This document shows positions 4,434 through 51,357 of a DNA stretch of 64,000 nt, one piece after another. The stretch is from Dehalococcoidia bacterium. GTDB lineage: Bacteria; Chloroflexota; Dehalococcoidia; Lucifugimonadales; UBA2985. How positions within the stretch are numbered: position 1 is the first letter of the stretch; every line of letters starts with the position of its first letter. The stretch is from NCBI GenBank assembly GCA_965222415.1, contig CBDCTU010000001.1, positions 369,648 through 433,647 of the forward strand. Reading direction: 5' to 3'. Below the pieces are notes generated by a model that was not told the origin of the DNA, made no database searches, and worked only from the letters and a program-made list of their open reading frames with translations. Position numbers and translations under genes: made by a program.

Positions 4434-5078
4434 CTAGACTATACTGCCGCCGGACAGGAACGGGTTGGTCAGCTTCTCCCTCGCTATGCTGGTGTCGGGG
4501 CCATGACCGGGATACACCTTGGTGTCCGCAGGCAGCGTCATTATCTTGGTGAAGATGCCCAGAACGAGCTGCCGCCCATCGCCCTCCGGCGTGTCAAACC
4601 TTCCCACGCTTCCCTGAAACAGGGTGTCGCCGGTGAACACCGCGCCGCCGCCGTAGTAGCAGACACCGCCCTTGGTGTGGCCCGGCGTCTCGATGGCCTT
4701 AAGCTCAACGTCTCCCAGATTGAACACGTCGCCGTCCTTGACGAATATGTCCGGGTCCGGCGGCTCTTTCGAACCCGGTATCATCAGGGACATCCACTGG
4801 CTGTCACGGCTCAGCAGTTCAACGTCCGCTTCGTGGATGCCGTAGCTAGCGCCGGTGGCCTCCTTGAGGTCAGCCACCGCTCCAATGTGATCTCCGTGGC
4901 CGTGGGTGTTCAGAATGTACTTGACCGTCAGCCCCTGGCTCTCCACCTCCTCCAGGATGCGATCAGCCTCCGCGCCGGGATCTATGATCACGCACTCCTT
5001 GGTCTCCTCCGACCCCACAATGTATGTGTTCTCCTGCATGGCACCACCCACCACCAACGGTACAATAAGCATCGGCAT
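4434..5078 (-). CDS. MBL-fold metallohydrolase (glyoxalase II-like)
   Basis: HTHGHGDHIG (HxHxDH) motif and later TPGHT/H residues. The true start may be the ATG at 5072. Confidence 0.8.
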   Translation of the reverse strand: MPMLIVPLVVGGAMQENTYIVGSEETKECVIIDPGAEADRILEEVESQGLTVKYILNTHGHGDHIGAVADLKEATGASYGIHEADVELLSRDSQWMSLMIPGSKEPPDPDIFVKDGDVFNLGDVELKAIETPGHTKGGVCYYGGGAVFTGDTLFQGSVGRFDTPEGDGRQLVLGIFTKIMTLPADTKVYPGHGPDTSIAREKLTNPFLSGGSIV

Positions 5079-5391
5079 CTCCTCTAATGACGTGTATCGG
5101 CGTGGCTACATTCTTGGAAAATAACGTGCTGCTGTCAAGAAGGTTGCACAGGATAGCGTAATTGTTTCTTAAGCTCTCATTGTTGACTCATATCTGAGGT
5201 AGGTCTAAGATGGGCTGTGGCGCAAGTCGCGTCTTTGGCCTCAAACACGCCGCAAGCTCCTGCCAGACCCGGAAGCCAGGCTTTGTGTACAGGCAAGGAA
5301 GGATGTCTCTTTGGCGAATAACGGGGAACATCCACCTCTTCCACCCGACGGGGGAGGCGACCGGGAGGACACAGGTCGCCAGGAGGAAGCG

Positions 5392-6903
5392 ATGCGCGTT
5401 GCGGCCGCCGGCGGCTCCGGACGGCGGGGCCGCGACGAAGACCTGAGCAACGCCACCACTGAAGAGATCCTGGACGTACAGCTGAAGTCGCACGGTGGAG
5501 GCGGCAGAGGAGGAGGAGGAGGAGGGGGCGGCAGACGGCGCTCTGCATACGCCACCCGCGACCTCACCCAGGGCAGCATATCCAGGAACCTGTGGTTCCT
5601 CGCTTGGCCCCAGATGATAGAGGGCACCCTGAACATGTTGGACAGGGTAGCGGACCTCTTCTGGGCCGGGCGTTTCCTTGGCTTCCACGCCGTGGCAGGC
5701 CTCGCCGTTGCCCAGCTGTACACCAACCTTGTCATGACGGGTCGCATGGGCCTGGACACGGGAATGCAGGCGATGATAGCCAGGGCCATCGGGGCGAATC
5801 GCCTGCAACTGGCAAACCACGTAGCGCTCCAGGCCTTCACCATCACCGGCTTATTCTCCATTCTGATGGCAACCGTCGGCTTCCTGTTCACAGACTTCCT
5901 TCTGGGGATAATGGGGGTGAGCCAGGACGTGGTTGAGGTAGCCAGCGCCTATATGCGAATCCAGTTCATAGGCTTTGGGGGCCAGGCCTTCCGCATGATG
6001 ACAGGCAGCGCTCTTCAGGCCGCCGGCGACCCCATGACGCCCATGAAGGCGACTACCATCTCCCGCGTGGCGCACATCATCCTTACACCCGTGCTGTTCC
6101 TGGGCTTGGGCTGGTTCCCGCAGTACGATCTGGCGGGCGCGGCCCTGGCAAACGTGATAGCCCAGGCCCTGGGAGTGGCCTGGAACACTCAAGCCCTCTT
6201 CAGGGGGACATCGAGACTCCATCTGAGCCTGCGTAACTACTACGTGGACTTCCCCCTTCTGGTCCGTCTGGTCCGCATCGGCGCTCCGGCCTCCGGCACG
6301 GGAATGGAGCGCTCCATAGTCCACCTGCTTCTGGCGCGCCTGGTGACGCCATTTGGAGACGTCGCCCTCGCGGCCTACGGTATCACCAGGAACCTGGAGA
6401 TGTTCACCGCTATGGGGAGCATGGGCCTGGGGCGGGCCTCCGGCACCCTGGTAGGCCAGAATCTCGGCGCAGGAAACGTCGACCGAGCCAGGAAGACCAT
6501 CCTGTGGGCCATTTGCTACATAACTGTGATACGAGGATCATTTGCCATCCTGCTCCTGATATTCCCCGCTCTTTTCATATCCATATTCAACAGCGATCCC
6601 GAGCTCATGGAGGTCGCGGTCTGGTGGGTGCGCATTCAAGCGTTATCGGGGTTGGTTATGGGAAGCGGCATGGTGTTCCAGCAGTCCTTTAACGTTGCGG
6701 GTGATACCGTCGCGCCCATGGTCGTTACCTTCATAGCAATGGTGGCAGTGGAGCTTCCCCTGGCCTTTGCCCTGTCCCAGTGGACGCCTATGGGACAATT
6801 CGGAATCCCACTGGCAATCACCGTAGCTATGGTGGTCAGGACCGCCGTCTACTTCCCCTACTTCTTGAAGGGCAGATGGACTCGCGTTAAAGTAATGGAC
6901 TAG
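5392..6903 (+). CDS. MATE family efflux transporter with Gly/Arg-rich N-terminal extension
   Basis: Multi-TM protein with a MATE-like start (RNLWFLAWPQMIEGTLNM). AGGAGG RBS precedes the ATG at 5392. The start could also be 5311. Confidence 0.75.
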   Translation: MRVAAAGGSGRRGRDEDLSNATTEEILDVQLKSHGGGGRGGGGGGGGRRRSAYATRDLTQGSISRNLWFLAWPQMIEGTLNMLDRVADLFWAGRFLGFHAVAGLAVAQLYTNLVMTGRMGLDTGMQAMIARAIGANRLQLANHVALQAFTITGLFSILMATVGFLFTDFLLGIMGVSQDVVEVASAYMRIQFIGFGGQAFRMMTGSALQAAGDPMTPMKATTISRVAHIILTPVLFLGLGWFPQYDLAGAALANVIAQALGVAWNTQALFRGTSRLHLSLRNYYVDFPLLVRLVRIGAPASGTGMERSIVHLLLARLVTPFGDVALAAYGITRNLEMFTAMGSMGLGRASGTLVGQNLGAGNVDRARKTILWAICYITVIRGSFAILLLIFPALFISIFNSDPELMEVAVWWVRIQALSGLVMGSGMVFQQSFNVAGDTVAPMVVTFIAMVAVELPLAFALSQWTPMGQFGIPLAITVAMVVRTAVYFPYFLKGRWTRVKVMD

Positions 6904-6956: not shown

Positions 6957-8069
6957 GTGCGTATTCTCGCCATAGACGTAGGCACCGGCACACAGGACAT
7001 CCTGCTATTCGATTCGACCAGGGCCGTTGAGAACTCGGTGCAGATGGTCATGCCCGCCCCAACCGTAATCGCGGCGGGAAGAATCCGCGAGGCTACGACG
7101 GCGCGACGGCCCCTAGTTCTCACTGGGACCAACATGGGAGGCGGCCCTGTCACCGGCGCCGTTCAGGAGCACATCGCGGCGGGCCTTCCGGCATACGTGA
7201 CCCCGGCAGCAGCCGTCACCTTCGACGACGATCCGGAGATGGTGCGGGGCATGGGCCTCACCATAGTGTCGGAGGATGAAATCAGCCGCCTCGACGGGAC
7301 CCGCGTGGCGCTGAGAGACTTGGACCTGGAGATGGTGCGCCAGGCCCTGCGAGCCTTCGAGGTGAAGCCCGACTGGGACGCCATTGCTGTAGCGGTTTTC
7401 GACCACGGGAATTCTCCGCCCGGCTACAGCGACAGGCGGTTCCGCTTCGACCACCTCCGGCAACAGGTGCTGGGCCAGCGCCAGGACGTTTTCTCCTTCA
7501 TCTATATGGCGGAGGATGTGCCGGACTACCTAACGAGGATGCGCGCCGTCGCGGAAACGGCCGGCGGCGATGTCCCACTGCTAATGGTTGACACGGCTGA
7601 GGCTGCGGTGCTCGGCTCCCTGGAGGACGACCACGTCGCGGCGCATCAGTGCAAGGTGGTTGCCAACCTCGGCAACGAACACACACTCGCCTTCCATCTT
7701 CACGGGACCACCATCCTGGGCCTCTTCGAGCACCACACACACATGCTGACCAGGGAGCGCCTTGAGGAGCACCTGCTGGAGCTGGTCAGGGGTGACGTGG
7801 ACGGCGACACCATATGGAGAGAACAGGGGCACGGCGCAATTGTGGTCCAGGGCGGCGAGGAGCTGGGTTTCCTCAGCGTCATTGGCCCCATGCGAGGGTT
7901 GCTGGAGAGATCGCGACTGAAGCCTTATTTCGCAACGCCCCACGGCTCCATGATGCTTGCGGGCTGCTTCGGGCTTGTCCGCGCCTGGGCGGAGCGAATA
8001 CCCTCAAGCCGAGACGAGGTCCTCCACGCCCTGCACACAATGGGCGAGGACATAGGCCACGCGCACTAG
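6957..8069 (+). CDS. ASKHA-fold protein, DUF1786-like
   Basis: MRILAIDVGTGTQDILLFD is an actin/sugar-kinase-type phosphate-1 motif. The family name is from memory, not a search. Confidence 0.45.
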   Translation: MRILAIDVGTGTQDILLFDSTRAVENSVQMVMPAPTVIAAGRIREATTARRPLVLTGTNMGGGPVTGAVQEHIAAGLPAYVTPAAAVTFDDDPEMVRGMGLTIVSEDEISRLDGTRVALRDLDLEMVRQALRAFEVKPDWDAIAVAVFDHGNSPPGYSDRRFRFDHLRQQVLGQRQDVFSFIYMAEDVPDYLTRMRAVAETAGGDVPLLMVDTAEAAVLGSLEDDHVAAHQCKVVANLGNEHTLAFHLHGTTILGLFEHHTHMLTRERLEEHLLELVRGDVDGDTIWREQGHGAIVVQGGEELGFLSVIGPMRGLLERSRLKPYFATPHGSMMLAGCFGLVRAWAERIPSSRDEVLHALHTMGEDIGHAH

Positions 8070-8707
8070 GAGCCCTGTGCCTCCATCGCAGAACGCTGCC
8101 TGACCACCCAATCATCCAGCCAGCGGCGGAACTGGTCCAAGGCCGGCGGCGCGACATAGAACACGTCAACGTCGGCGGGGAACTGCACCTGGTGCCGCTC
8201 GTTAATGATCAGCAGGCCAACCTCGTCCTGCCCAAGGGTTTCGTCAATACGACCGGCTATGTGCTCGTAGCGCCTGCGCACGGAGTCGTTGAACCACTCG
8301 CGGAGCTGAATGGCCACCTTTTCGCTGCTGAACGGCACCATCAGGCACCTCTGGAGGTCCAGAGTCTCCCACAGCCCCTCCGCGTCCTCGGTGGCCTCAA
8401 GAGTTGCCCCCGCCTCGTACCATTCCCGCACAAGGGCTAAGCTCGGCGTCTCACCGGCCTCCAGGCTCCGTATCCCATCTTCGCCGCCCTGGACTACGCT
8501 CTCGTGATAGATGTGCTTTACAGGCCCGAGTCCCGCCTCCAGGGACGAGACTTGGGACCGCGTCTGCTCCCAGAAAGCGTTGAGGATGGCCACGCCCTCT
8601 TCCTCCAGGGTTGGCGGGTGGTACAGCTGAGGCACGAGCAGCAACTTCCTCTTGCCCCGGAAGTCCTCCGCGGATGGCCTCTCGATGCGTCCAAACTCCT
8701 GCGTCAT
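8066..8707 (-). CDS. hypothetical protein
   Basis: 213 aa ORF with an AGGGGA RBS and protein-like composition. Its end overlaps the end of 6957-8069 convergently by 4 nt. Confidence 0.5.
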   Translation of the reverse strand: MTQEFGRIERPSAEDFRGKRKLLLVPQLYHPPTLEEEGVAILNAFWEQTRSQVSSLEAGLGPVKHIYHESVVQGGEDGIRSLEAGETPSLALVREWYEAGATLEATEDAEGLWETLDLQRCLMVPFSSEKVAIQLREWFNDSVRRRYEHIAGRIDETLGQDEVGLLIINERHQVQFPADVDVFYVAPPALDQFRRWLDDWVVRQRSAMEAQGS

Positions 8708-45452: not shown

Positions 45453-46334
45453 GTGCGTCCGATAGTCCTGTATAGCGTAGTCGCCGTCGGCGTACTGGCC
45501 GTCTCCACCGCGGCTGTACTCATCCGTCTGGCCGACGCCCCGGCCTTGGCCATAGCTGCCTACAGGCTGAGCTTGGCCAGCCTGGTGACGCTCCCTCTCG
45601 CCGTGGCGAAAGACCACCAGGGTCTGCGCTCCCTGAGCATGTCCCAACTCCTCTGGTGCATGGCCTCCGCGCTGGCCCTCGCCGTCCACTTCGCAGCGTG
45701 GATTGCCTCCCTGGAGCACACGTCGGTGGCAAGCTCGGTTGTGCTGGTGACCACCAGTCCCCTGCTGATAGCCGCTGTCTCCCACGTGGCTTATCGGGAG
45801 CGACTGACGCCGGCGGTGGCCGGAGGCATAGCCCTGGGCGTGGCGGGCGGATTGGTGCTTGCCCAGGGAGACCGCGCTGCCGGCGGCGGCGAGCTTTACG
45901 GCGACTTCCTGGCGCTAATCGGAGCCGTAGCCGCGGGCACGTACTTCCTGATTGGCCGACGCGTCAGACGAAGCCTCTCCAACGTCAGCTACATAGCCCT
46001 TGTGTACTTCGGGTCGGCGATCGCGCTGATGGCGGCGGTAATCGTTACAGGCACTCCACTCACCGGCTTCAGCGCCGGAACATACTGGATGATACTTCTG
46101 GTAACATTGGCGCCACAACTCATTGGACACTCATCGCTCAACTGGGCCCTGGGGCACCTGAGCGCAACTCTGGTTGCCGTTGCAGTGATGGCCGAGCCGG
46201 TAGGCGCCACGATTCTGGCCTGGCTAATACTTGACGAATCGCCTCCCCTTGCCAGTGTCATTGGGGGGACTCTGGTACTATCCGGTGTGTATCTGGCATT
46301 TCGCAGGCCGGTGGCCGGTTGGGGCGCGACTTGA
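45453..46334 (+). CDS. EamA/DMT superfamily transporter
   Basis: 293 aa, about 10 TM helices in two EamA halves. Confidence 0.75.
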   Translation: MRPIVLYSVVAVGVLAVSTAAVLIRLADAPALAIAAYRLSLASLVTLPLAVAKDHQGLRSLSMSQLLWCMASALALAVHFAAWIASLEHTSVASSVVLVTTSPLLIAAVSHVAYRERLTPAVAGGIALGVAGGLVLAQGDRAAGGGELYGDFLALIGAVAAGTYFLIGRRVRRSLSNVSYIALVYFGSAIALMAAVIVTGTPLTGFSAGTYWMILLVTLAPQLIGHSSLNWALGHLSATLVAVAVMAEPVGATILAWLILDESPPLASVIGGTLVLSGVYLAFRRPVAGWGAT

Positions 46335-46368: not shown

Positions 46369-48375
46369 ATGGACAATGCTATCCTTGGCGTGGACATAGG
46401 GGGCACTTTCACCGACTTTGCTCTGATAGACCGGGGCGAGGTCAGGGTCTTCAAGCTCTCGTCTACACCGGACGACCCAACCAGGGCTTTTCTCGCGGGT
46501 CTGCAGGAGCTTCGGGCGTCGCCGGACACCGACATCTCCCACGGCTCAACGGTGGCCACCAACGCTCTGCTGGAGCACAAGGGCGCGCGAACCGCTCTCC
46601 TGGTCACCGAGGGTTTCGAGGACATGCTGGAGATCGGCAGGCAGAACCGCCCCGCGCTGTACGACTTCGGGGTCGAGCGGCCGCCGCAGCTGGTTCCCCC
46701 TGAGCTGCGAATCGGCGTCAGGGAGCGCCTCGACAGCCAGGGGAGCGCCGTCATCCCCCTGACTGCCGAGGACGCCACGCGCATCGCTCAGCAGGTCCGG
46801 GAAAGCGGCGCCGATGCTGTAGCCGTATCCCTTCTCTTCTCGTTTCGCAATCCTGAGCATGAGCGTCTGCTCAGGGAGGCGCTGGACGGCCAGGGAATCG
46901 ACGCCTTCATCTCAGTCTCCAGCGACCTTCTGCCGGAGTACCGGGAGTACGAGCGCACCAGCACCGTGGTGGTCAACGCTTACGTCGGCCCGCCCATGGC
47001 GCGTTACCTTCAGCATCTGAGCAATGCGGTGGGCAGGCGCCTGCGGATAATGCACTCAGGAGGGGGCAGTCTTTCGCCGGAGAAGGCTTCGCAGGAGCCG
47101 GTCCGCACACTACTGAGCGGCCCCGCCGGAGGAGTGGTGGGAGCCTTCTACCTGGCATCCCAGGCGGGCTTCCCCCAGGTCATCACCCTGGACATGGGCG
47201 GCACCTCGACCGACGTCTCACTTTGCCCCGGCCTAGTACAGGAGACAACCTCGGCGCAGATTGGCGGCTACCCCACCCGTATGCCCACCATAGACATCCA
47301 TACGGTGGGAGCAGGTGGAGGCTCCATAGCGCGAGTCGATCCCGGCGGCGCGCTGCTGGTTGGCCCTCAGTCGGCAGGGGCTGATCCGGGGCCGGCCTGC
47401 TACGGCCGCGGCGAGCGTGTAACGGTAACGGACGCAAACCTGGTCCTGGGCCACCTTGACGAAGGCCGGTTCCTGGACGGAAGGATGACGCTGGATGCGG
47501 AACGGTCGCGCTTCTACCTGGAGATGCTGGCCTCTGAGCTGGGGCAGGACGTCGTAACCACCGCCGAGGGCGTCCTCAGAGTCGCCAACGCAACTATGGA
47601 GCGGGCGCTGCGCACAATCTCCCTGGAGCGGGGCTTTGACCCGCGTGCATTCACCCTTGTGGCCTTTGGCGGAGCCGGCCCCATGCACACCTGCTCCCTC
47701 GCCGAGGGCCTGGGAATACAAAGGGTACTGGTGCCGCCGCACCCCGGCGTGCTCTCGGCGCTGGGGGCCGCTCTTGCCGACGTCGTGAAGGACTACTCAC
47801 GGACCCTGCTGCTCCGTGAGTCCGACGTGGACGCAAACGCACTGAGAAACGCTTTCAAGCCAATGGAGGAGCAGGCGCGTGAGGACCTCGCGCGAGAGGG
47901 GTTCGAAGGGAACCGGCTGCAGTTGCAGCGCTTCCTTGACCTGCGATACGTGGGCCAGTCCTACGAGCTGACCGTCCCCTGCCCTCCCATTGGCGCGAGG
48001 GTTGCGCAGTCCGCGGCCCGCCGCTTCCACCGCGCTCATCGCCGCCGCTACGGCCACAGCGACCCGTCCCAACCGACGGAAGTGGTCGCGGCGCGGCTGA
48101 AGGCGATCGGCCCTGTGGAGAAGCCCGCAATCGCGCCCGCGACTGAGGGAGAGAAAGACCCCACACCGGCTGTCGTGGACGAGCGGCCCGTGGTGTTCGA
48201 TGGCAAGCGCCTGCCTACCCGGTGCTACGACCGGTCGCTCTTGCTCCCGGGAAATGCCCTTGCAGGGCCGGGCCTGGTCTTGCAGATGGACTCCACAACC
48301 GTCATCCCGCCGGGATGGACGGCGCGAGTGGACGGCTATCGCAACCTGATTGTAGAGTCGCTACTGTTAGATTAG
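46369..48375 (+). CDS. hyuA: hydantoinase/oxoprolinase family, A subunit
   Basis: LGVDIGGTFTDF N-terminus, LDMGGTSTD, and 668 aa length. Confidence 0.85.
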   Translation: MDNAILGVDIGGTFTDFALIDRGEVRVFKLSSTPDDPTRAFLAGLQELRASPDTDISHGSTVATNALLEHKGARTALLVTEGFEDMLEIGRQNRPALYDFGVERPPQLVPPELRIGVRERLDSQGSAVIPLTAEDATRIAQQVRESGADAVAVSLLFSFRNPEHERLLREALDGQGIDAFISVSSDLLPEYREYERTSTVVVNAYVGPPMARYLQHLSNAVGRRLRIMHSGGGSLSPEKASQEPVRTLLSGPAGGVVGAFYLASQAGFPQVITLDMGGTSTDVSLCPGLVQETTSAQIGGYPTRMPTIDIHTVGAGGGSIARVDPGGALLVGPQSAGADPGPACYGRGERVTVTDANLVLGHLDEGRFLDGRMTLDAERSRFYLEMLASELGQDVVTTAEGVLRVANATMERALRTISLERGFDPRAFTLVAFGGAGPMHTCSLAEGLGIQRVLVPPHPGVLSALGAALADVVKDYSRTLLLRESDVDANALRNAFKPMEEQAREDLAREGFEGNRLQLQRFLDLRYVGQSYELTVPCPPIGARVAQSAARRFHRAHRRRYGHSDPSQPTEVVAARLKAIGPVEKPAIAPATEGEKDPTPAVVDERPVVFDGKRLPTRCYDRSLLLPGNALAGPGLVLQMDSTTVIPPGWTARVDGYRNLIVESLLLD

Positions 48376-48587
48376 TGGCGTAAGGTGAATCAAATTGTTA
48401 ATACCATATGCTTTGGATGAGCATGGTGAAGTCGTCCACGTAGATGCTATATAGAATGGCAAAGCTACGCCGGGAGCGCAAAGACTGACGGTCACAATCG
48501 TCCGGCAGGATCTCCACAAGTGGCTGTGTGACTCCCGGAATGGCAAGGCCGTAAAAGAAAACGTCAAGAAGCTCTGGTGAGCGTAGA

Positions 48588-49217
48588 ATGGACAGAGACA
48601 GCATTATCAAAGCTTTGCTAGTGGTCATTACCGTTGGGGTCCTGCTCATAGCAATCACATGGGCCTTGGTATGCCTAACCAATACTGGTATCACTGACTC
48701 AGCGAGGGCAGTTCAGGCTTTCGTCACTGCTACTGCCATATGTGCAGGCGGAGTTTTTGCGTACCATAAATTTCAGATATTCAGAGATTTCCAGCCCCAT
48801 CTGACCATCTCCAATGCTGTCTCGCATAGACGCATTGGAGAAAGCTATGTTCACATTGACGTTACAGCGACCCTACACAACAGTTCAAAGGTTAAGATGG
48901 AGTTACGTGAAGGATTCTTTCGATTGCAAAAGCTAGCGCCTGTACTAGACGAAGATGTTGAAAACCTGTATGCCCAGGTATTCTGGGATCAGGAGCACTC
49001 GTACCTTCAATGGCCCACTCTGGATGACGCCAGACGCGATTGGGACAAGGGTATGCTAATTGTGGAACCGGGTGAGTCACATCAAGAGACATACGAATTC
49101 ATAGCATCAATGGATGTTGAGTCGGTTATCATACACACGTATTTCTACAATCCCTATTCTTCAAGCCCGGAAGGTTGGGGAGCGACGACAGTCCATGATA
49201 TAATTCCGAGTAGCTGA
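48588..49217 (+). CDS. hypothetical 2-TM membrane protein with soluble C-terminal domain
   Basis: Two N-terminal hydrophobic helices (ALLVVITVGVLLIAITWALV; AFVTATAICAGGVFAY), then about 140 aa with beta-rich-looking sequence. AT-richer DNA. Confidence 0.55.
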   Translation: MDRDSIIKALLVVITVGVLLIAITWALVCLTNTGITDSARAVQAFVTATAICAGGVFAYHKFQIFRDFQPHLTISNAVSHRRIGESYVHIDVTATLHNSSKVKMELREGFFRLQKLAPVLDEDVENLYAQVFWDQEHSYLQWPTLDDARRDWDKGMLIVEPGESHQETYEFIASMDVESVIIHTYFYNPYSSSPEGWGATTVHDIIPSS

Positions 49218-49245
49218 TAGGTATCAATTCTCTCAGGGAGGTTGT

Positions 49246-49473
49246 ATGCCACACGAGGATACGACTGGCAAAGTGGTTATAAAGGGGACGGGTCCGCGGC
49301 CAGCCCCCCCCAAGACAGAAGACTCGGGCAAACCCCCTGGGGCCGAGCCTGTTACGAGCAGAATGCCTGAGTCTGAGGTTGGTATTCAAGCTGGAGGTAG
49401 TCCAAAGGCGGCACCTCCGAAAGAAACGGTATCGCGTAAGCCCCCTGGAGCCAAGCCTACGGTGAAGTCGTAG
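49246..49473 (+). CDS. small Pro/Lys-rich protein, paralogue 1
   Basis: GGGAGG RBS. Two internal copies of the (A)PPK-x3-S-x-KPPGA motif. Confidence 0.55.
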   Translation: MPHEDTTGKVVIKGTGPRPAPPKTEDSGKPPGAEPVTSRMPESEVGIQAGGSPKAAPPKETVSRKPPGAKPTVKS

Positions 49474-49483
49474 AGGGAGGAAT

Positions 49484-49669
49484 ATGCCAACCGAAGACAT
49501 TCGCAATAAGAGCGGAGAGAATTCAAATACGGATCAGAAGGCGGAGCCTAGGCAAAGCCCTACTTCTGAGCCAAGTGTGCACAAATTCGGGGGGGAGCCA
49601 AGAACGGCACCTCCGAAAATCTCGGTGTCGCGTAAACCCCCAGGAGCCAAGTCGGCGAAGAAGTCCTAA
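49484..49669 (+). CDS. small Pro/Lys-rich protein, paralogue 2
   Basis: GGGAGG RBS. The C-terminus APPKISVSRKPPGAKSAKKS parallels paralogue 1 (APPKETVSRKPPGAKPTVKS). Confidence 0.55.
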   Translation: MPTEDIRNKSGENSNTDQKAEPRQSPTSEPSVHKFGGEPRTAPPKISVSRKPPGAKSAKKS

Positions 49670-49690
49670 GCGAGCTAACTCACGGGTGAA

Positions 49691-49729
49691 GGGCGCTGGA
49701 ATCGTTCCAGTGCCCTTTCTTGCTTGTTT
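49691..49729 (+). terminator. Rho-independent terminator closing the inserted cassette
   Basis: gggcgctggaa-tcg-ttccagtgccc (one G-U pair) followed by tttcttgcttgttt. Confidence 0.65.
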
Positions 49730-49751
49730 GGCTGCAACTTGGTGATAGAAT
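49724..49751 (+). promoter_or_regulatory. candidate extended -10 promoter for hyuB
   Basis: TTGTTT-16 nt-TAGAAT, preceded by TGa. GGAGG RBS before the ATG at 49774. Confidence 0.4.
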
Positions 49752-49773
49752 CACTCAGCACCGGAGGCCAACG

Positions 49774-51357
49774 ATGCCTGACGCGATAAGCCTGCAGGTG
49801 TTCCACAACCTCTTCTCCTCCGTTGCCGAGGAGATGGGCGTCGCGTTGGGACGCAGCGCCTTTTCCGTCAACATCAAGGAGCGCCAGGACTACTCCTGCG
49901 CCCTCTTCGACCCCCAGGCTCGGATGGTGGCCCAGGCAGCCCACATACCTGTTCACCTGGGTTCTATGCCGGCGTCCGTGGAGGCTGCCCTGGAGCGACT
50001 CACCCTCTCGCCCGGAGACGTGGTGGCCCTCAACGATCCATACATGGGCGGCACTCACCTGCCCGACATCACGCTGGTAGCCCCCGTATTCGCACCGATG
50101 GATGACGGTCCCGGCCTCGTGGGGTTCGTGGCCAACAGGGGGCACCATGCCGATATAGGCGGAATGACGCCGGGGTCGCTGCCCCTCTCGACGGAGCTGC
50201 TCCAGGAGGGGCTAATCATACCTCCAATCAAGCTCGTCAGGAGAGGTCGACTGAACGCGGAGGTGGTGGAGTTGATCTGTCGAAACTCCCGCACTCCCAA
50301 CGACCGCCGCGGCGACCTGGCCGCGCAGCTGGCGGCCTGCCGCGTGGGCGAACGACGACTTCAGGACATTGTGTCCAAGTACGGGTGGGAGGAGACCCGT
50401 CTGCACATGGACGGCCTGCTGAACTACTCCGAGCGTCTCACCCGCGCCGCCATAAGAGAGATGCCCGACGGAGAGTTCTCCTTCCTGGACTACCTGGAGG
50501 GCGACGGCTTCAGCGACGAGCCCCTGCCCATCCAGGCCACGGTGCGTGTAAACGGCGAAGAGATGGAGGTCGATTTCACAGGCACGGTCTCCCAGACGGA
50601 GGGGTGTGTAAACGCCCCCTTCGCCATCGCACTATCAGCCGTCCTATACGTGGTGCGGTGCATCGCCGGGGAGCAGGTCCCCGCCAACCAGGGCATCCTG
50701 CGGCCGGTCGCGGTATCGGCGCCGGTGGGGTCATTGGTCAACCCCACTCCTCCTCACGCCGTAGCCGGGGGCAACGTGGAGACCTCCCAGCGGATTGTGG
50801 ACGTGCTCATGGGGGCTCTCGCCCAGGCCATGCCCAACCTCATACCCGCCGCCAGCCAGGGCACAATGAACAACATCCTGGTGGGAGGCCGTCACCGAAA
50901 TTGGGAGGGTTTCGCCTACTACGAGACCATTGCCGGTGGCATGGGCGCCCGCCCGGACAAAGACGGCCTTTCCGGCGTACACACCCACATGACCAACACA
51001 CTGAATACACCTATTGAAGCGCTGGAGTTGCAGTTCCCCATGCGTGTGCGTCGATACGCCCTTCGCAGGGGGTCAGGCGGCGAAGGCGCTTACCGGGGAG
51101 GCGACGGGATCGTCAGGGAGGTGGAGTTCCTTGCGCCTGCCACGGTGACTCTGCTCACGGACCGGCGACGAAGCGCGCCCTACGGCCTCCAGGGCGGCGG
51201 GCCCGGAGCCGCCGGGGAGAACATCCTCTACAGGAACGGCGTAGAGGAGATACTACTCCCGTCCAAGGTAACCTTCAGGGCGGAACCCGGAGACATCCTC
51301 AGGATGCTCACGCCCGGAGGAGGCGGATGGGGAGCCGAAACGGGCCAACGCCCGTAG
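49774..51357 (+). CDS. hyuB: hydantoinase/oxoprolinase family, B subunit
   Basis: [22 protein letters not shown]..., [12 protein letters not shown], and 527 aa from the ATG with an RBS. Confidence 0.85.

Follow-up and report, generated by a model that had tools for sequence, protein, structure and literature searches.

We analysed a window of 64,000 nucleotides (nt) from a Dehalococcoidia bacterium (contig CBDCTU010000001.1, positions 369,648 to 433,647), in which the hydantoinase/oxoprolinase subunit genes hyuA and hyuB stand 1.4 kb apart, separated by a small gene cassette that is the subject of this report. Placement of the flanking genes by Pfam (Hydantoinase_A, E = 3e-100; Hydantoinase_B, E = 5e-213) bore out the gene ends given in an earlier reading of the same letters, hereafter the original prediction. 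The DNA between them is indeed AT-richer, with a GC content of 0.47-0.57 against 0.65-0.68 in the flanks. GC content at third codon positions (GC3) is 0.49 in the first and longest cassette gene and 0.54 and 0.57 in the two small genes that follow, as compared with 0.78 and 0.79 in hyuA and hyuB, and the codon usage of the cassette is foreign. The three open reading frames (ORFs), of 209, 75 and 61 amino acids (aa), are separated by only 28 and 10 nt and share one terminator after the last of them (Table 1). Both small ORFs carry the predicted GGGAGG ribosome-binding site (RBS), 4-5 nt 5' of the ATG.

Table 1. Features of the cassette and its flanks, in window positions; hyuB' is a partial copy of the 5' end of hyuB.
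Feature	Position	Strand	Source
hyuA (hydantoinase/oxoprolinase A), left flank	46369-48375	+	Pfam, C-terminal comparison
AT-richer cassette leader, GC 0.50, with candidate extended -10-like element TGCTATATA/TATAGAAT at 48445-48457; hyuB' remnant absent, unlike L027 and L006	48376-48587	+	
209-aa membrane-anchored protein: predicted transmembrane hairpin (~3-31 and 35-67) and acidic immunoglobulin-like beta-sandwich (68-209, net charge -12)	48588-49217	+	
GGGAGG RBS of mini-protein 1	49236-49241	+	
Mini-protein 1: 75 aa, 20% proline, net charge +4; two repeat units (49246-49362 and 49360-49470)	49246-49473	+	
GGGAGG RBS of mini-protein 2	49475-49480	+	
Mini-protein 2: 61 aa, net charge +5; one repeat unit (49559-49666)	49484-49669	+	
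Intrinsic-terminator-like hairpin (49688-49718, 14 pairs) with T-rich tail, closing the cassette operon	49688-49729	+	
Right-end sequences: candidate extended -10 TGATAGAAT (49743-49751) and GGAGG RBS (49763-49767)	49743-49767	+	
hyuB (hydantoinase/oxoprolinase B), right flank, intact	49774-51357	+	Pfam

The Rho-independent terminator expected at the end of the cassette was recovered as a stable hairpin (-27.7 kcal/mol, z = -4.5), and none of 200 shuffled sequences folded as well. Its stem is retained through compensatory changes in L027 and L006 (L numbers denote loci of relatives that were compared with the window). The promoter proposed to re-start hyuB is no more than a candidate: the extended -10-like TGATAGAAT is shared with L001 and L027, but L006 lacks it and the consensus scan made no promoter call there. 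The same scan called no promoter on the + strand of the cassette leader. The terminator and right end of the cassette appear to provide the displaced hyuB with a new RBS (GGAGG) and perhaps also with a promoter. At the left end, the last ~4 codons of hyuA diverge from those of relatives (..VESLLLD* versus ..VESSQS* and ..LELSHA*), which places the beginning of the foreign DNA at ~48362.

In keeping with the original prediction, which recognised no family among the three cassette proteins, none of them has a match in Pfam, PADLOC, NCBIfam or PHROGs, and the 209-aa protein has none in the PDB either, by profile or by single sequence. Homologues of the 209-aa protein are nevertheless numerous. 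A word-indexed search returned 429 at E <= 0.01, the best 120 of these 429 being 52-95% identical, and an exhaustive profile search returned 1,546 clusters (at 50% identity) at E <= 1e-3, 895 of them at E <= 1e-10. All seven matches in reference genomes are metagenome-assembled genomes (MAGs) of Dehalococcoidia, and a distant branch extends to a Blastocatellia MAG. The protein belongs to a large unnamed family of ~1,500 clusters, mostly from Dehalococcoidia.

The AlphaFold2 (AF2) model of this protein (pLDDT 74) begins with two long helices, residues 3-31 and 35-67, in agreement with the two N-terminal transmembrane (TM) helices originally proposed, followed by a beta-sandwich of 7-8 strands into which a helix (121-134) is inserted. 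The hydrophobicity of helix 1 is clear, Kyte-Doolittle windows of 19 residues reaching at least 2.75. Mean charges across the family are +2.0 at the N-terminus, -0.8 in the loop between the helices and +2.1 after helix 2, a pattern that points to an N-in/C-in topology. The sandwich is acidic throughout the family (mean charge -12.8), and residues R66, H71, R81, Y87, H89, N98, S100, W142, E160, P161, E167, G196 and W197 are invariant. In distant members, helix 1 reads as replaced by a lipoprotein-type signal peptide and linker, to which one TM helix and then basic residues are joined, and such an exchange of anchors is compatible with a cytoplasmic sandwich domain.

The two mini-proteins consist of three copies of one unit of ~35 residues, with the pattern G-x-x-P-[RK]-x-A-P-P-K-x3-S-x-K-P-P-G-A, preceded in the first units by V-V-I-K; a longer form of the pattern is [VI]x[IV]KGTGP[RK]xAPPKxxxSxKPPGA. 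Across 42 such peptides, P17, P21, P30, P31 and G32 are invariant and M1, G14, A20, K23 and K29 almost invariant. With net charges of +4 and +5 in the window, the peptides are basic; they contain 15-20% proline and no hydrophobic segment, and AF2 gave a peptide modelled alone no secondary structure (predicted template-modelling score 0.19). KPPG lies 8-12 residues before the stop codon; RKPP occurs in two of the three window units, RAPP and RGPP in none. Relatives supply the unit either in one to three ORFs of its own or in tandem, with two or three units per ORF (L006 and L025, the latter with three). The three ORFs of the original prediction therefore stand, but they amount to two components, since the mini-proteins are copies of one unit.

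The unit is tied closely to the membrane gene. A profile search with it found 78 gene-called proteins of 40-86 aa, and all three of the loci found through the peptide and then looked up have a member of the membrane family directly upstream. When 414 kb of fetched DNA was searched in six frames, 52 of 52 strong unit matches lay directly 3' of a membrane gene and none elsewhere. Conversely, almost all loci with enough DNA beyond the membrane gene have units directly 3' of it, the exception being L022, where only a divergent small ORF was seen. The reading frame is retained over 42-95% protein identity, and differences between the window and L027 inside the motif fall mostly at synonymous sites. 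Conservation of the proteins, the linkage and the synonymous bias of the motif changes indicate that the mini-ORFs are real genes, and the functional unit, as judged from these comparisons, appears to be a pair: one membrane protein and n peptide units, not three unrelated genes.

Two observations at the edge of the family concern the same partnership. The most divergent members (42-43% identical) have a different small ORF first downstream (L021 2706-2900; L022 8581-8787), which reads MSIVIKRTGR[KR]DNRE...KWRLT..R[EK]YPT.P.IV and has only the 'IVIK.TG' start in common with the usual unit; it may be a second type of peptide. Another distant member, P0264 (307 aa; L026 274-1197), ends in ...GLPRPRPPAPPRPPQRPPDTKQQPPKPPPPPKK, so that here the membrane protein itself includes a Pro/Lys-rich tail. 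This tail, which is of low complexity and lies on a contig of only 1.5 kb, could be a fusion hint for the partnership.

The cassette had been taken for an inserted, self-contained accessory element, and comparison with relatives upheld this. Contiguous hyuA and hyuB were found at two empty sites: in L033 the two genes overlap by 8 nt, hyuA being 87% identical to that of the window and the gene order (EamA-hyuA-hyuB-zf-S15-PNPase) the same, and in the syntenic L034 (78% identical) they lie 2 nt apart. The cassette is not consistently present at native GC, the pattern that would have spoken against the original prediction: close relatives carry it at this site as divergent alleles of non-native GC, and syntenic relatives further away lack it. 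Traces of the insertion are seen in two loci. In L027, hyuA is directly followed, on the left side of the cassette, by a 212-bp copy of the hyuB 5' end (codons 1-76, 96% identical; position 6057-6284). In the corresponding place (5883-5999), L006 has an internally deleted hyuB' remnant of 38 codons, with codons 1-22 joined to ~71-76. Integration by a single crossover (Campbell-type) of DNA that bore a hyuB 5' fragment would be expected to produce such a duplication, and we infer an event of this kind. The window copy appears to have since lost the duplicate and to have had the last ~4 codons of hyuA replaced. No integrase or transposase ORF lies in the gap, the minus-strand ORFs of which have no Pfam match at E <= 10, and a search for direct repeats or a target-site duplication flanking the window's own copy gave none that were convincing. 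On these grounds, together with the foreign codon usage and the variety of contexts described below, the 1.4 kb between hyuA and hyuB are best read as a horizontally acquired, self-contained operon.

The site also appears to undergo rapid change. The flanks of L027 are 92-97% identical to those of the window, and its hyuB, like that of L001, is 96% identical; its membrane protein is only 51% identical, peptide 1 59% and peptide 2 77%. L027 furthermore retains a 'ATGGACAGG' scar, a membrane-gene start of the window type ahead of a different allele. These sequences suggest that alleles at the hyuA-hyuB site are replaced between near-identical strains. Cassette parts are shuffled as well: the first peptide units of L006 and L027 agree at 82% identity, but their membrane proteins at only 47%. 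The gap of L006 holds in addition a complete Pycsar system (4459-5777; PycC of 278 aa, 5e-69, and PycTM of 160 aa, 5e-30, by PADLOC), inserted immediately after the original ATGCCT of hyuB. The hyuB' remnant that separates Pycsar from the cassette points to two independent insertions, and the landing of a second system in the same gap marks this gap as a recurrent insertion hotspot.

Elsewhere the cassette was found in further surroundings, which brings its contexts to at least seven, mutually unrelated. Besides the hyuA-hyuB gap, it lies directly after a type IIG restriction-modification (R-M) gene in two genomes (L007 and L025). Two more contexts are the interval from ApbA to an amidohydrolase and that from MR_MLE to an ABC transporter. 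In the others it adjoins terminase and portal genes, adjoins thiamine pyrophosphate-enzyme genes, or follows an ABC2 transporter, where one strain has a HEPN/TPR gene inserted alongside. Known defence genes adjoin it in two of the seven. The R-M gene ends directly before the membrane gene in both genomes (L007 3486-5999 and L025 3831-6965; PADLOC 3e-63 and 3e-62). Identity between the two genomes is 67% for the R-M proteins and 52% for the membrane proteins, and the L007 R-M protein is without ~215 N-terminal residues. A gene for an LmuB-like SMC ATPase lies ~5.5 kb upstream in L025. The arrangement may be a recurrent three-part one.

Two side observations concern the neighbourhood of the cassette. 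In L030 (7363-9402), an extra 63-aa ORF and a 546-aa TPR/HEPN_LA2681 protein lie directly 3' of the cassette; both are absent from the syntenic L028, L029 and L031, and the 546-aa protein has no PADLOC match. A GC-rich repeated element surrounds the cassette in L005 (~5270-5890 and 7650-8400) and L007 (~1300 and 7000-7400). One of its frames reads ...GVQGAQPPPGVQRVPLFP... and another ...LYPRRGLRPLHPAWG..., and it may represent a small repeat or mobile element.

The cassette is an autonomous, horizontally mobile operon for a membrane-tethered acidic domain, predicted to be cytoplasmic, and for obligately linked, basic, disordered and multivalent peptides, and it is one copy of an undescribed, widespread and recurrent two-component module found mainly in Dehalococcoidia. 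Our preferred interpretation, to which we give a probability of roughly 40%, is that binding of the peptides to the sandwich keeps the membrane protein in check, and that loss of the peptides releases membrane damage, in the manner of toxin-antitoxin or abortive-infection systems. The peptides would act as cytoplasmic ligands of the sandwich that keep the membrane protein inactive. If the supply of these short, unstructured peptides fell, through translation shut-off, phage takeover or loss of the cassette, the membrane protein would be freed, oligomerise via its hairpin and damage the membrane, so that the module would behave as a conflict cassette. The peptide supply could be unusually sensitive to the state of translation, since every unit carries two consecutive-proline motifs, one in the invariant KPPG and one in the conserved APPK. 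Efficient translation of stretches like PPG and APP requires elongation factor P (EF-P), as PMC12992588 states with reference to Ude, Doerfel and Peil (2013).

Several features are shared with known conflict systems. Like toxin-antitoxin and abortive-infection cassettes, the module is compact, self-contained (with its own RBSs and terminator), mobile and spaced as if co-transcribed; it is inserted between core genes, shows fast allele turnover and sits at times in defence islands. Like toxin-antitoxin pairs, it combines a structured protein with a small, disordered partner of opposite charge. The number of contexts, the Pycsar system in the same gap of L006, the R-M gene upstream in L007 and L025, the LmuB-like gene nearby in L025, the turnover of alleles and the shuffling of parts all point towards a conflict system. 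Membrane disruption is the established activity of two-TM effectors that carry a soluble, beta-rich domain. The S-2TM-beta proteins (Cap15 of CBASS, the antiphage signalling system that is based on cyclic oligonucleotides, and OptE of Panoptes) resemble the 209-aa protein in having ~200 aa, an N-terminal two-pass TM element with a small beta-rich cytoplasmic domain, and accessory or defence neighbourhoods. OptE, moreover, is a two-TM effector held off by a constitutively made ligand (PMC12657218), and the logic proposed here for the cassette is likewise that of a ligand-restrained effector, but with a peptide as the ligand. The defence or addiction role suggested in the original prediction is plausible.

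A number of results weigh against this interpretation. We found no similarity of the cassette proteins to any toxin, antitoxin or defence family in Pfam, NCBIfam, PADLOC, PHROGs or the PDB. An antitoxin gene usually precedes its toxin gene; the peptide genes follow the membrane gene, an atypical order, and unlike the antitoxin genes of known cassettes they are variable in copy number or tandem. Nor does the cassette encode a DNA-binding domain for autoregulation. The 82%-identical peptide that serves membrane proteins of 47% identity argues contrary to the tight cognate pairing of many toxin-antitoxin pairs. In five of the seven contexts the genes around are ordinary metabolic ones and no defence gene is adjacent. 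No relatives were found in IMG/VR viral contigs, which leaves no direct link to phages. Helix 2 is only marginally hydrophobic, at ~1.3 by hand sum against the Kyte-Doolittle cut-off of 1.6. Finally, the 50 best PDB matches listed by Foldseek for the sandwich are generic immunoglobulin (Ig)-like folds (E ~1e-3), with no functional lead. Two related ideas were rejected. A weak RBS on the membrane gene holds in the window, but it is no conserved 'excess antitoxin' feature, as L005 and L007 have G-rich Shine-Dalgarno-like sequences upstream. An origin of the cassette in phage was dropped in view of the IMG/VR result and of fold matches in BFVD that are generic and add nothing.

Other explanations of the pair were weighed against the same evidence. 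A non-conflict accessory physiology, in which a membrane-tethered sandwich and hydrophilin-like disordered partners protect the envelope or act in stress, would suit the small, charged and disordered peptides, the mostly metabolic contexts and the best target-normalised Foldseek matches, which are ApaG/DUF525 domains, an LEA14-like protein of archaeal origin (3BUT), TRAP-beta and the luminal domain of TMEM106B (TM-scores 0.4-0.58). GH2 linker domains are also among the matches. The likeness to WHy/LEA-2, TMEM106B and ApaG is one of fold only, a sandwich of 7-8 strands with an N-terminal membrane anchor; LEA_2 and DUF525 are not matched in Pfam even at E <= 1, and most domains of this group are extracytoplasmic, unlike the predicted location here. 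A patchy mobile module with empty sites, foreign GC3 and allele replacement, recurring beside R-M and Pycsar genes, also fits a simple stress function poorly, and we consider this explanation doubtful. Reversed roles, with the Pro/Lys-rich units as peptide toxins or a multi-core precursor and the membrane protein as immunity, processing or export partner, would account for the copy number of 1-3, for near-identical units in one ORF (L025 and L006), as in multi-core precursors or bacteriocin clusters with a small membrane immunity protein, and for the strong RBSs of the peptide genes, while the invariant H71, H89, E160 and E167 of the sandwich could form a metal or catalytic site. Yet the peptides are very hydrophilic and have no signal peptide, leader or double-glycine motif, the cassette holds no transporter or recognisable modifying enzyme (Pfam, PADLOC, NCBIfam, PHROGs), and the predicted topology places the sandwich in the cytoplasm, which makes such an arrangement unlikely.

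It is more doubtful still that the mini-ORFs yield no working proteins and act in cis, as polyproline ribosome-stalling elements (APPK, KPPG) that tune mRNA stability, termination at the hairpin or read-through into hyuB. Every unit has an invariant P-P-G and a conserved A-P-P-K, placed towards the C-terminal end of small ORFs as are the RAPP-like stalling motifs of arrest peptides (PMC12992588), and the hairpin begins only 19 nt past the last unit. RxPP-type motifs are generally avoided in bacterial proteomes (PMC12992588). The motif here is, however, [RK]xAPPK...KPPGA and not RAPP or RGPP, and the ORFs lack the N-terminal membrane or secretion signal of monitoring substrates. They lie 3' of their conserved partner and 5' of a terminator rather than upstream of a regulated gene, and the genes beyond vary by locus. 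Conservation also extends over ~22 residues beyond the prolines (G14, K23, S, K29), and unit valency varies. An orphan effector of nucleotide second messengers, that is, a divergent two-TM protein of Cap15/OptE/PycTM type answering a cyclase encoded elsewhere, seems highly improbable. The likeness to two-TM effectors noted in the original prediction holds for the architecture of Cap15 and PycTM: size and layout agree, the soluble domain beginning at ~residue 68 as compared with S73 in OptE (PMC12657218), PycTM is likewise a small two-TM membrane protein, and a Pycsar operon shares the gap in L006. Homology was tested for and not found. The 209-aa protein matches no S_2TMBeta, PycTM or PADLOC two-TM effector model (Pfam and PADLOC, E <= 1) and no PDB sequence, and hhalign against the L006 PycTM gave a probability of 0.1%, on which a relation to that protein was rejected. 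Its predicted domain is an Ig-like sandwich with an inserted helix rather than a minimal beta-barrel, and Cap15 and OptE chains are absent among the 50 best Foldseek matches listed. Its obligate partner is a Pro/Lys-rich peptide rather than a nucleotide synthase (CD-NTase or mCpol); no such synthase or cyclase lies in the window gap, a cyclase is absent in six of the seven contexts, and the L006 Pycsar has its own PycTM, set apart by the hyuB' remnant. That the gap is a non-coding spacer with chance ORFs, for which only the absence of database annotation speaks, is refuted by hundreds of protein-level homologues with invariant residues, by a frame kept across 42-95% protein identity and by motif substitutions that are mostly synonymous.

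A more specific version of the proposed restraint of the membrane protein by its peptides, which we regard as a long shot, is that KPPG and APPK are what the system is built around: the mini-proteins would be difficult to translate and short-lived so as to report on elongation capacity (EF-P or ribosome status), and their steady supply would restrain a membrane effector. The module would then be a 'translation guard' that converts a disturbance of translation by phage or stress into membrane disruption. If so, its sensing principle would, as far as is known, be undescribed for defence and toxin-antitoxin systems, and its effector would represent a new fold family of ~1,500 clusters. A search of the literature on the KPPGA motif, on proline-rich small proteins in anti-phage systems and on defence in Dehalococcoidia found nothing relevant. 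If the cassette is a conflict system of any kind, it would bring an additional effector family and a regulator of a novel type, the repeated polyproline mini-protein, to Chloroflexota, a phylum whose defence repertoire is, to our knowledge, almost unstudied. The strict linkage gives ~1,500 unannotated clusters, and ORFs of 40-80 aa that are usually not called, a testable hypothesis of function. The locus is also a natural example of an insertion hotspot between translationally coupled metabolic genes, with empty sites, an apparent duplication of the target, replacement of the cassette and the arrival of a second system (Pycsar), in which the inserted DNA restores the RBS, and possibly the promoter, of the displaced gene.

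Some minor observations were made at and around the hyuA-hyuB gap. A minus-strand ORF of 98 aa (48398-48694; end ...SFAILYSIYVDDFTMLIQS, '...SIYVDDF...') superficially resembles the YxDD of reverse transcriptases. It is judged a chance resemblance, and the idea of a reverse transcriptase remnant was dropped because the ORF has no Pfam match at E <= 10 and runs antisense to the membrane gene. A search for structured RNA in the gap gave only two sub-threshold Rfam matches (E = 0.34 and 0.94). The hyuA of L027 (4041-6048) is broken up into three successive ORF calls (227, 124 and 295 aa), which jointly cover the whole window HyuA at 92-95% identity; this reflects either long-read frameshift errors or decay of the gene beside the insertion. 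Finally, the EamA transporter 5' of hyuA is encoded by one gene in the window (45453-46334) and by two tandem paralogues in the near-identical strains L001-L004 and L027, which are 96% and 69% identical to the EamA of the window.

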